This document shows positions 5,256 through 8,199 of a DNA stretch of 9,870 nucleotides, in pieces. The stretch lies in IMG/VR virus record IMGVR_UViG_2713896780_000030. One strand, 5' to 3'. The translations under genes and the position numbers were made by a program. Within the stretch, counting starts at the first letter, position 1; each line of letters opens with the position of its first letter. This stretch comes from a virus (lineage: Duplodnaviria > Heunggongvirae > Uroviricota > Caudoviricetes). The notes beneath the pieces are model-generated. The model was not told the DNA's origin. It was given only the letters and a program-made list of their open reading frames with translations, and ran no database searches.

Positions 5256-5804
5256 ATGCAAAAATCCTTCCGATTCACCAATTCATCCATCAAAGCCCTT
5301 CCGGCAAACACAGATACCCGATCTACAGAGCTTGAGGTATCAGATACCGAGGTCATAGGCCTCAAATGTCTCTCAGGTCGAACGGGTAACAAACGTTTCC
5401 TCCTGCGCTACACATTCCACGGTACCAAAAAAAGTATCAGTATTGGCAGATTCCCTGAAATCGATGTGGGGACAGCCCGTCAGATAGCTCGTCGTCACAA
5501 GGAGGCGATTGCACTGGGAAATGACCCTAAAGCAGAACGCGATAATTATCGTGCGATGCCAACACTTAGTGAGTTTTTTCACCAGACCTATGTTCCGTTC
5601 ATCAAACGCCATAAAAAGTCCTGGGATAAGGATGTTCAGCGTTTCACGCAATACATTGAACCTCGTCTGGGGAAGATACGTTACTGCGACCTTCGGGCCC
5701 GGGAGATCCAGCAGGTGCTTTTTGACATGTTACTGAATAGCCTTCTGACGTCAGCCATTCAGCAACCTCTTTACAGGAATAACTTTTTTTATCTTTCAGC
5801 ATAA
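5256..5804 (+). pseudogene. N-terminal fragment of a P4-type tyrosine integrase (arm-binding DUF4102-like plus start of core-binding domain); catalytic domain absent
   Basis: ATG at 5256 with GAGGA 5 nt upstream. FTNSSIKALPA...GLKCLSGRTGNKRFLLRYTFHGTKKSISIGRFPEIDVGTARQIARRHKEAIALGNDP matches the P4-integrase N-terminal domain pattern, and ...LGKIRYCDLRAREIQQVLFDM matches the core-binding region. Similarity stops near nt 5729; the remaining 24 codons are unrelated and no R/HxxR/Y catalytic region follows. Confidence 0.6.
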
Positions 5805-8199
5805 GCCCCCATTGGCACTGAGTCAGCGCCCGGAGAAATAGTCTGACTAAAATATCATCACTACGTTTGCTTCCGACTTTTAGTTTCATATCAGAAAACA
5901 CCGTCCGGCAATAGAGAAAATCACACCAGTCATCCCAGTCAGCCAGGGTCTTCAGTGTATGCGTTTGCCGCCAGTCGTCGAAAAGAGAGCGTTGCTGCAG
6001 AGCCTCTTCCATATTATCCCATGGGCGGGAAGACATCAGTAAATGCCCTTCATTCATGGCGGGCTGTACGGGCTGGCGTTTGAAATCGAATTCCAGATTA
6101 AGACGGATATCCTGTTCCCGGGATACCAGATCGCTTTCCGACAGCCACATCTCACGCGTTGATATCAACGTACTTCGGGATAACGTCTGACCGGGTAAAC
6201 GATTAAGGTAAAGATCTACCATATAGTCGTTATAGTCACTGCGTGGAATATCGGCAGGAGGTTTGACGCCAGCCCTGGCATGAACAACAGGTTTTCCCTG
6301 AATAGCTCTATAGGTTAACTGCCCCCGGGTTTTCATGGCGATAAGCTGGCTGACCTCATGCTTACATGTCAACATTGATGAACCCGGATCAACAATATCG
6401 CACAGCGACTGGAAGCGGGAAGACAGTGGACCGCTCATGTTTATCTTGTTAAGTGGGCAATTTGTCAAAAAGCCATCGGTTGTGACGCTGACAACCGATG
6501 AATCAGAAGGCAAAGCATTCATGAGTTCCCCGACAACGGCGCGGATAAATCCCGTCACATGCGCAGCAAAGAATGGCTGAGTAACCGATGATGGTGGGAG
6601 GGATCTGTTTAATCCACGGGCAGTATCAAAGGCGGTTTTGGCGCGAAGGCCCTGAGCAAGTTTGCCATAAAGCGAGTTGCCAATTTCTTTCCAGAATTTC
6701 TCCTCCAGAGAACCTTTAATATGGCGATTACGGTTCTCACGGACCTGTTGAACAAAGGGAAGAAACACCGATGTTGATTCGCTGTTATGTGGGGAGGTGT
6801 CACAGATCCAGGGGACGATGATCCCATTATGGATCGTCATCTCTGCCCCGAGCGACAGAGCAAGTTCGATTTCAGGTGCCGTTGCCCATGATTCGCCACT
6901 TAATGGAAAGAATAACCCATATTGATCGGTCCGAACCGGCAGGCTGGGATAGGGAACTGATTCCGGGAACTGAAATGTGACAAACGCAAATCCCATTACA
7001 TGCCCACAGTAATCGTCCGGATTTTTACTGAGGCGGATGTTTCCGTAATCGGGTATGAGGATATCTAATAGCCCGGTGGTATACGCTCCAGCCAGATCGT
7101 AGTCATACCAGTGATCAGACGGTGTAACCCCCATCATAAAACACTCATTGCGTCCGCCGTGGTAACAGTTGATCGGGAACGTTTCAAACAGCTCTCTTGA
7201 AGGAACACTGGCGGGGTTTTTAATCGTCCGGAATGCCTGTTTCTCCGTGAGCCAGAGTTCACGGGTTTTAATGTGTGTCCCAAGGCAGACTTCAGGAGAC
7301 ATATTGTTTTCTTTAAGTGTTTTGGTGAACCGTGAAACTGCCATCGCCCCGATGGTGGCGGGGACACGATCAATCATCAGCTCCCGGGCGCAAAAATTGC
7401 GAACCTGTAAAGCATAACGAACCGCAATCTCGGCATCCCGCAGAGCATAGGCTTCAAACCCTGCTCTGTCGCCCAGAAGATATTCACGCATATTGGTTAT
7501 GGAATAAGGTGCAGGAATGGTCAGTTTGGGAAGACCCAGTAATTCACCACATTCAGCCAGACCCATACCCCCGGGAGTGATAAGCAGTGTATCGATGAAA
7601 GCTACGTTACTGCAACGCGGAGGGGAAGTTCGTTTGTCAAACATTATCTGTTCAGTCTTTACGCGACGTTCCTGCTGTTCATCAAAATCGATACCGTAAC
7701 GATTTTTGAAGCTGCTGACAGTACCGCGTATTCCTTTCAGAAGAATTTTGTAGTCTGACCAGAAATTGGCAAAGGAGGTGATATCCGCACGAATGAAATG
7801 CGCATATATATTAATAATACCGGGCCATTTTGTAATCACACCCGTTTCAAGAAGCGGTGTAATCGTTTGACAGAGAAAGTTCTTAAAAGACAGCCGGGAT
7901 TTTTTCTGTGAGTCAGGTGGATAGATAATGTTCGATATACCTGTATTATCGGGTAAGACAACATAACTCTGATATGACAGAATATCATTCTGTTGTGTTT
8001 CAGGATTGAAAACATATTCGGTATCAAAACCGATATGGAGTGTCAGGTCACTTGAAATAACAGATACTTTTTTTGATGCAGGTGGTATCACAGGATAATC
8101 ATCAAGCGTTTTAGGTCTTTTAAGATTGAGCGCTGGCTCTGAAGTCACGGACTGATACCCCGATGCGGCAGCGAGGATGTCCTGCAAATTATTGCTCAT
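5644..8199 (-). CDS. Family-B DNA polymerase with 3'-5' exonuclease domain, primer-independent PolB (piPolB)-like, 851 aa
   Basis: ATG at 8199 with GGAG 7 nt upstream; in-frame upstream stop at 8266-8268. Ordered motifs: Exo I FD59TE61Y (nt 8017-8025); Exo III Y251ALRD255; motif A-like YDYD368LAGAYTT (nt about 7096-7104); motif B K504EIGNSLYG512 (nt 6664-6690); motif C-like SVTTD575GF (nt 6475-6477); KTRG at residues 623-626 (nt 6322-6333) replacing KxY. Last about 27 codons are antisense to the integrase fragment. Confidence 0.9.
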   Translation of the reverse strand: MSNNLQDILAAASGYQSVTSEPALNLKRPKTLDDYPVIPPASKKVSVISSDLTLHIGFDTEYVFNPETQQNDILSYQSYVVLPDNTGISNIIYPPDSQKKSRLSFKNFLCQTITPLLETGVITKWPGIINIYAHFIRADITSFANFWSDYKILLKGIRGTVSSFKNRYGIDFDEQQERRVKTEQIMFDKRTSPPRCSNVAFIDTLLITPGGMGLAECGELLGLPKLTIPAPYSITNMREYLLGDRAGFEAYALRDAEIAVRYALQVRNFCARELMIDRVPATIGAMAVSRFTKTLKENNMSPEVCLGTHIKTRELWLTEKQAFRTIKNPASVPSRELFETFPINCYHGGRNECFMMGVTPSDHWYDYDLAGAYTTGLLDILIPDYGNIRLSKNPDDYCGHVMGFAFVTFQFPESVPYPSLPVRTDQYGLFFPLSGESWATAPEIELALSLGAEMTIHNGIIVPWICDTSPHNSESTSVFLPFVQQVRENRNRHIKGSLEEKFWKEIGNSLYGKLAQGLRAKTAFDTARGLNRSLPPSSVTQPFFAAHVTGFIRAVVGELMNALPSDSSVVSVTTDGFLTNCPLNKINMSGPLSSRFQSLCDIVDPGSSMLTCKHEVSQLIAMKTRGQLTYRAIQGKPVVHARAGVKPPADIPRSDYNDYMVDLYLNRLPGQTLSRSTLISTREMWLSESDLVSREQDIRLNLEFDFKRQPVQPAMNEGHLLMSSRPWDNMEEALQQRSLFDDWRQTHTLKTLADWDDWCDFLYCRTVFSDMKLKVGSKRSDDILVRLFLRALTQCQWGLMLKDKKSYSCKEVAEWLTSEGYSVTCQKAPAGSPGPEGRSNVSSPDEVQCIA

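Follow-up and report, generated by a model that had tools for sequence, protein, structure and literature searches.

The primer-independent family-B DNA polymerase (piPolB) of the integrated elements called pipolins is notable as a family-B replicase that supplies its DNA primers itself, a property established in 2017 on an E. coli protein almost identical to the one considered here. The literature describes the canonical 866-amino-acid (aa) enzyme as a phi29-like family-B replicase that combines 3'-5' proofreading (D59/E61) and polymerisation (D368) with strand displacement, bypass of non-bulky lesions and the making of DNA primers de novo, the last of which needs K613 and a KTRG motif replacing KxY. 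De novo DNA synthesis and translesion synthesis have been shown biochemically for the 866-aa enzyme only, and over-expression of the wild-type protein raised survival after mitomycin C and UV (PMC5695915). Here we analyse a piPolB gene in a stretch of 9,870 nucleotides (hereafter the window; IMG/VR record IMGVR_UViG_2713896780_000030), which a first-pass annotation, made from the sequence alone, had read as the polymerase of a self-replicating pipolin. We find it highly probable that the window holds instead a known deletion variant of the piPolB of the E. coli pipolin at tRNA-Leu, and that this variant is a decaying remnant and not the working replicase of a mobile element.

Pipolins of this kind have been reported before. 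A 2024 survey delimits a truncated Enterobacterales subgroup (its Fig. 3B, 'pipolin 2') in which insertion sequences (ISs) lie near the recombinase IntP2, recombinases are truncated, the piPolBs form a monophyletic clade and prophages are often adjacent (PMC11551731). An earlier survey, from 2020, describes partially truncated piPolB genes together with an Arm-only XerC in phylogroup D strains, lists one of these strains, LREC237, as clonal complex 32, and notes pipolins at a tRNA-Leu site also occupied by a myovirus prophage, so that three attachment (att) repeats result (PMC7385651). The subgroup is regarded as truncated and probably immobile (PMC7385651, PMC11551731). The window shares all four of its features, namely the deletion between IntSXT and piPolB, the Arm-only integrase fragment, the IS beside IntP2 and the adjacent co-integrated prophage, and we see no substantive difference from it. 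The window is an instance of this published subgroup (2020, 2024), and as such a rediscovery of something already known; what is added here is the exact junction at 5728/5729, the loss of part of a C-terminal domain, and preliminary evidence for relaxed selection.

The polymerase gene and its family

The features on which the argument turns are the following (positions are those of the window; L002 is the intact pipolin locus of strain G5, and P0022 the representative of a cluster of 1,387 sequences of the 866-aa E. coli polymerase).

5644..8199, minus strand: piPolB-fusion open reading frame (ORF), 851 aa, a single ATG-started ORF in the ORF listing
5728..8199, minus strand: piPolB codons 1-824 (819/824 identities to P0022; blastn against L002; motif check)
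5728..5729: deletion junction, 6,595 bp gone (L002 2406-9000; blastn against the intact G5 pipolin)
5644..5727, minus strand: foreign tail CQKAPAGSPGPEGRSNVSSPDEVQCIA followed by a stop, 27 codons plus stop codon, antisense of an integrase fragment (the BLASTP match ends at residue 824)
5256..5729, plus strand: IntSXT-type tyrosine recombinase fragment, the N-terminal 158 of 400 codons, with the Arm DNA-binding domain only and the catalytic domain deleted
4091..4142, plus strand: att direct repeat, the 3' part of tRNA-Leu from the anticodon loop on (52 nt), which divides a prophage from the pipolin

The first-pass annotation had placed the family-B polymerase and proofreading motifs in the 851-aa ORF, and a direct residue check of the translation puts every one of them where it was claimed. 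Exo I is D59-T-E61, in the context HIGFDTEYVF; the Exo II residue D139 is present; and Exo III is Y251-ALR-D255. Polymerase motif A contributes D368 within YDYDLAGAY, motif B reads K504-EIG-NSLYG, and the PolC motif is TTD575G, in which the second carboxylate alone is kept. At the place of KxY lies an extended motif, K613-H614 followed by K623-T-R625-G626, as had been proposed. A motif set of this kind in one ORF is far beyond chance. In all, codons 1-824 encode a disordered N-terminus and the exonuclease domain, then the polymerase core, in which the KH-X8-KTRG motif lies, and the first part of a C-terminal helical domain.

The enzyme characterised in 2017 comes from E. coli 3-373-03_S1_C2 and is represented by P0022, with which the window protein shares 99.4% identity over residues 1-824 (BLASTP) as well as its catalytic numbering. 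The published mutants include D59A/E61A (exonuclease-dead), D368A (polymerase-dead) and K613A, H614A, K623A and R625A in the 'KH-X8-KTRG' motif (PMC5695915), so that the numbering D59/E61 and D368, which the annotation had given, is that of the characterised enzyme. Because the mutated residues sit at the same numbers, the window protein appears co-linear with that enzyme through at least residue 625; this co-linearity is deduced from the published residue numbers and from the statement in the 2020 survey that piPolBs of newly sequenced E. coli strains share >98.8% mutual identity in aligned regions (PMC7385651). The two loci also share their setting (tRNA-Leu, a gene resembling uracil-DNA glycosylase (UDG), and an upstream 212-aa ORF), and they differ in that the window allele is without native residues 825-866 and carries the 27-residue foreign tail. 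Among the copies compared, L406F occurs only in the window/O145 copy, and R410Q in most truncated copies. An identical 851-aa protein is on record in 97 contigs.

A search of 1.84 billion cluster representatives returned 2,073 relatives at E<=1e-3, of which 566 reached E<=1e-30. The catalytic residues were compared in an alignment (A1) of 83 sequences, in which the 866-aa protein stands beside 82 homologues at 29-48% identity. The residues named in the annotation fall on conserved columns: D368, K504, T574, D575 and K613 are invariant, and D59, E61, D139, Y251, D255, N508, Y511, R625 and G626 are conserved in at least 90% of sequences, the exonuclease residues D59/E61, D139 and Y251/D255 being kept in 76-82 of the 83. 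Across the KH-X8-KTRG columns, K613 is found in 83/83, H614 in 72/83, K or R at position 623 in 81/83, R625 in 82/83 and G626 in 75/83. A canonical KxY in the closest homologues had been named as evidence that would speak against a piPolB; since the homologues carry K/R-T-R-G throughout, that objection falls away.

Profile searches, which had been proposed as a test, gave a weaker answer. The Pfam model PF03175 (DNA_pol_B_2) scored 17.7 bits against a gathering cut-off of 25.8 (E 0.0018) and is thus below threshold, and no NCBIfam model matched the polymerase; the PHROG 'DNA polymerase' families did match it, at 9e-7 and 4e-5. A search of PDB sequences, with the single protein or with the 83-sequence profile, matched no polymerase. 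The proposed structural comparison was far more informative. Modelling the 866-aa protein with AlphaFold2 from alignment A1 gave a mean predicted local distance difference test (pLDDT) score of 90.2 and a predicted template-modelling (pTM) score of 0.89, and when the model was compared with the PDB by Foldseek, phi29 DNA polymerase took the nine best places (E 2e-16 to 1e-13; target-normalised TM 0.61-0.66), with family-B polymerases of archaea and eukaryotes coming next. Of the solved structures, phi29 DNA polymerase is therefore the nearest in fold, and the predicted structure settles family membership as a fold like that of the protein-primed family-B polymerases (PolBs). TPR1 and TPR2 insertions may be present as well, as the global phi29-like match would imply.

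Compared with phi29 DNA polymerase (PDB 2PYJ, 2EX3, 1XHX), piPolB has its exonuclease and polymerase motifs in a like order. However, the two share only ~12% identity, with no sequence-level match even when the family profile is used; piPolB has KTRG in place of KxY and TTD in place of DTD, carries an extra C-terminal helical domain of ~140 residues and does not need a terminal protein. Together, these data support the identification of the ORF as a piPolB in which KH-X8-KTRG replaces KxY, located inside a pipolin at tRNA-Leu. The window contains both the piPolB hallmark gene and an att direct repeat overlapping tRNA-Leu, the other att copies lying outside it, and many E. coli O145:H28 and O145:NM genomes match its pipolin part at 100% identity. 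As the annotation had anticipated for generic pipelines, the gene goes under 'hypothetical protein' or 'DNA-directed DNA polymerase' in RefSeq, where the 3'-truncated fusion is left unflagged; this is where the practical value of the present result lies.

The deletion junction and the lost C-terminal helices

The identification just given holds for codons 1-824 and not for the ORF as a whole, which ends in 84 nt of non-polymerase sequence (5644-5727; 27 codons plus stop). A blastn comparison with the intact G5 locus accounts for this end. Window positions 4193-5729 correspond to L002 870-2405, which covers the UDG-like gene and the first 158 of the 400 codons of a site-specific integrase, and positions 5729-9062 correspond to L002 9001-12349. 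The G5 genes in the missing segment are the integrase catalytic domain, two hypotheticals, a DUF2787 gene, a DUF726 gene, an IS1, a helix-turn-helix (HTH) regulator and another hypothetical, and the segment also holds the last 43 piPolB codons, stop included. As a result of this 6,595-bp deletion, two convergent genes, the IntSXT-type integrase and piPolB, have been fused, and the polymerase frame continues for 27 codons on the antisense strand of the integrase fragment.

An inversion that had split a single integrase together with piPolB was initially suspected, because integrase fragments lie on opposite strands, one N-terminal (5226..5804, plus) and one C-terminal (9085..9726, minus). The alignment to G5 rules this out, since it shows that the recombinases are two distinct ones and that the lesion is a simple deletion of 6,595 bp.

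The native tail that the allele has lost, residues 825-866, reads VTDVKNAVRAKIPQMKFSSVTPRMKSLMDIIARKYPTFCLPV; these 42 residues are replaced by 27 unrelated ones, and the protein is to that extent not full-length. In the 866-aa model the C-terminal helical domain spans residues ~730-866, with helices at 730-743, 752-771, 780-793, 809-818, 825-830 and 846-858, and the window allele is without the last two (825-830 and 846-858). Block pLDDT is 86-96 over residues 821-860 and 77 for 861-866, and a model of the domain alone reproduces it (pLDDT 91.1). Distant homologues align up to residue ~823-826, that is, to the junction, and then continue for 40-65 more residues of their own; in the 83-sequence alignment the lost segment includes the conserved columns A831 (61/83), R833 (56/83), T845 (56/83) and P860 (75/83). 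No structural relative of the domain was found in the PDB. The deletion thus cuts into a conserved, confidently folded and piPolB-specific C-terminal domain, while the whole catalytic core is kept in the window protein.

The junction is not peculiar to the window. Among 5,426 complete E. coli genomes, 423 contain piPolB-like sequence, 284 of them covering at least 80% of the gene, and a 141-nt junction probe matched end to end in 33 (32 at 100%, one at 99.3%). Since the identical junction recurs in 33 genomes, the comparison fits a single ancestral deletion.

Mobility genes, constraint and competing readings

Apart from the IntSXT fragment, the mobility functions of the window pipolin are represented by the following.

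9085..9822, minus strand: IntP2-type tyrosine recombinase fragment, the C-terminal 245 of 376 codons (Pfam Phage_integrase, E 1.3e-22)
8877..9062, minus strand: remnant of an excisionase-like HTH gene, its first 5 codons gone (window against L003)
9821..9870: end of an IS3-family IS, ~50 nt (the match to IS-free strains stops at 9822)

All three mobility genes (IntSXT, IntP2 and the excisionase-like gene) are broken. The IntSXT fragment matches Pfam Arm-DNA-bind_3 (E 7.7e-15), carries the RefSeq note 'incomplete; missing C-terminus' and was judged truncated by comparing translations with the 400-aa integrase of G5. The IntP2 fragment aligns to positions 14007-14766 of the locus of strain G1/2 (L003); its N-terminal third is lost, the IS cutting in at ~9821. 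At 9062/9063 the excisionase-like gene has lost its first five residues, MYLTI, and its upstream region to a 143-bp deletion relative to G1/2 and G5; an in-frame stop now immediately precedes the remnant, and the gene is annotated in G1/2 and unannotated in the O145 record. This deletion is found in the window and in the locus of the closed O145 genome (L001), and is absent from G1/2 and G5. In L001 an IS3-family transposase is annotated directly beyond the IS end of the window, and beyond that element lies a 5'-truncated hsdM, which suggests that an IS-associated deletion removed the IntP2 N-terminus along with neighbouring genes. Among plasmid records, 2,606 contain a 56-nt stretch of the IS end, at places annotated as IS3-family transposase. 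The IS at 9821-9870 is presumably IS629-like.

Strain G1/2 bears the same piPolB/IntSXT deletion, yet has an intact excisionase-like gene and an intact IntP2, and no prophage. Because both genes are intact there, the additional lesions are later events in the O145 lineage. The core genes for DUF2787 and the HTH regulator are deleted here and present in G5, where we assume the HTH regulator to be the WYL-domain core protein; the gammaproteobacterial core definition is that of PMC11551731.

Taken together, a single 6.6-kb deletion joined piPolB codon 824 to the antisense of the truncated IntSXT integrase, and the lineage matching O145:H28 has in addition lost the first codons of the excisionase-like gene as well as IntP2's N-terminal third. 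A P2-like prophage lies in tandem at the same att site. The element would no longer be able to excise or self-replicate as a unit, and its polymerase gene would be drifting under relaxed constraint.

The polymerase gene itself carries further damage in at least 10 of the 33 junction-bearing genomes, in the form of frameshifts, a nonsense codon, IS insertions and further truncation. ISs interrupt it in RM12761, RM13516, ESDR8 and XPFI_3_2, single-base deletions are found in RM12275-C1 and RM8995-C1, and CUVM53, C325 and UTME-3 have a 5' truncation or small fragments. One truncated copy (PapRG-06-5) carries D203N at a family-invariant column. Variable codons within 1-824 were tallied by hand over four full-length truncated and seven canonical copies, with the following counts and ratios of nonsynonymous to synonymous polymorphism (pN/pS).

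Truncated clade, full-length copies: 10 nonsynonymous, 5 synonymous, pN/pS 0.60
Truncated clade, with partial copies: 14 nonsynonymous, 5 synonymous, pN/pS 0.84
Canonical copies: 11 nonsynonymous, 26 synonymous, pN/pS 0.13

The truncated and canonical classes differ by Fisher's exact test (p = 0.027 for full-length copies; 0.004 with partial copies), which provides preliminary evidence, from sequence comparison, pointing to relaxed constraint on the truncated allele.

Several points weigh against reading the allele as a decaying remnant. The polymorphism test draws on few sites and uses no phylogeny, and singletons at the tips inflate pN/pS. In RM12275-C1 and RM8995-C1, both long-read assemblies, the single-base deletions fall within homopolymer runs and may reflect sequencing or assembly errors. 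Finally, most O145 genomes, like the window, have an unbroken 851-codon frame, and all catalytic residues are present, so that polymerase activity is conceivable; judging by its sequence, the 851-aa protein may still polymerise DNA in vitro.

The most serious competitor builds on that last point. It holds that the protein is truncated yet active, a stand-alone host enzyme for damage tolerance or de novo priming, uncoupled from mobility and with a C-terminal helical domain that is dispensable for catalysis. The complete catalytic core, the persistence of an open-frame allele in most of the 33 genomes and in diverse hosts, and the benefit of over-expressed wild-type piPolB under mitomycin C and UV (PMC5695915) all speak for it. 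We nevertheless think it unlikely, given a pN/pS of 0.6-0.8 in the clade as against 0.13, the further disruption of ~30% of copies, D203N at a family-invariant column in one member and the loss of conserved C-terminal residues. The more specific proposal, that the 851-aa allele is an active primer-independent translesion polymerase kept by O145:H28 and some other lineages after the loss of mobility because it serves the host, seems to us rather doubtful. If it were true, catalysis would not require the C-terminal helical domain, whose role would instead be element-specific, for example in recognising pipolin DNA or a partner protein. On either account the 851-aa allele is a natural domain-deletion variant for studies of the piPolB C-terminus.

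Two other readings fare worse. It is very improbable that the window holds a complete, functional piPolB driving the self-replication of an active mobile pipolin, even though all catalytic and KH/KTRG residues are intact, the ORF is uninterrupted, and the att repeat and syntenic neighbours are in place. The native last 42 residues are gone, the window has neither of the recombinases nor the excisionase-like gene in complete form, the core genes that lay between IntSXT and piPolB have been lost, and the published surveys hold the subgroup to be truncated and probably immobile (PMC7385651, PMC11551731). This reading, implied by the self-replicating element of the first-pass annotation, is already contradicted by the alignment to intact pipolins. 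As for a protein-primed PolB of the phi29/Bam35 type that needs a terminal protein, phi29 DNA polymerase is indeed the closest solved fold, and the weak Pfam DNA_pol_B_2 match leans the same way; but K/R-T-R-G replaces KxY family-wide, K613 is invariant, the element is integrated and att-flanked and not a linear genome, a near-identical enzyme showed primer-free synthesis (PMC5695915), and no terminal-protein gene is evident among the neighbours by Pfam or RefSeq annotation. We give this reading next to no credence. A decaying deletion variant of the tRNA-Leu pipolin polymerase thus stands as our preferred interpretation.

Neighbouring genes and the adjacent prophage

The remaining features of the window are listed here, from left to right.

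1-3984: early region of a P2-like prophage, left of the att repeat and in tandem at the same tRNA-Leu site
1028..1231, minus strand: Cox-like excisionase/repressor of the prophage (PHROG 575, E 1e-27)
1530..1934, plus strand: HTH repressor of the prophage
1950..2600: moron-like gene of the prophage
2630..2977: moron-like DUF2511 gene of the prophage
2983..3984, plus strand: intact phage integrase of the prophage, 333 aa (PHROG 1, E 1e-76; Pfam Int_N and Phage_integrase)
4143..4192: run of 50 N; the closed genome has only 'cca' here (L001 11990-11994)
4435..5175, minus strand: UDG-like gene, a 246-aa ORF adjoining att (WP_022581686.1), syntenic in G1/2 and other strains
8206..8242, minus strand: putative terminator-like GC-rich hairpin with a T-run (pattern scan only)
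8249..8887, minus strand: conserved hypothetical gene, 212 aa, directly upstream of piPolB on the same strand (WP_022581683.1)

The annotation had cited the neighbours of the polymerase as fitting a pipolin. The tRNA-Leu att site bears this out: the repeat is 100% identical to L003 8939-8990, within the tRNA-Leu annotated at 8907-8993 in G1/2. The integrase at 2983..3984, the only intact 'XerC-like' gene close to the polymerase, does not, because positions 1-3984 are P2-like prophage and the gene is therefore not a pipolin gene. A DUF4761 gene also lies in the prophage early region, and in the closed genome a replication endonuclease is found further left in the P2-like prophage. Identity to strain FWSEC0002 is 99.5% over the prophage part of the window, as against 100% over the pipolin part.

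ARAGORN found no complete tRNA in the window, because the window has only the 3' part of the tRNA, which abuts the N-run. Since the closed O145 genome holds just three bases at this place, 'cca', the 3' end of the tRNA, the N-run has the look of a gap left by scaffolding across the repeated att/tRNA sequence and not of a like-for-like mask.

For the UDG-like neighbour, the syntenic gene that had been pointed out is present, and its label rests on the literature, where the syntenic pipolin gene is described as a family-4 UDG (PMC7385651). The 246-aa protein matches PHROG 29550, a family of unknown function (E 2e-178), and has no match in Pfam (E up to 10), NCBIfam or PDB sequences. By eye it contains GRETAG and HPR motifs, which loosely resemble UDG motifs.

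The 212-aa protein WP_022581683.1 is annotated in every truncated-type locus examined, and a 212-aa ORF lies upstream of piPolB in all E. coli pipolin loci examined. It has no match in Pfam, NCBIfam or PHROG, and may be one of the 'orphan' core genes of the 2024 survey. Between its stop (8249) and the piPolB ATG (8199) sits the putative hairpin, with a 10-bp stem containing 7 GC pairs, which leaves ~7 nt ahead of the piPolB start codon.

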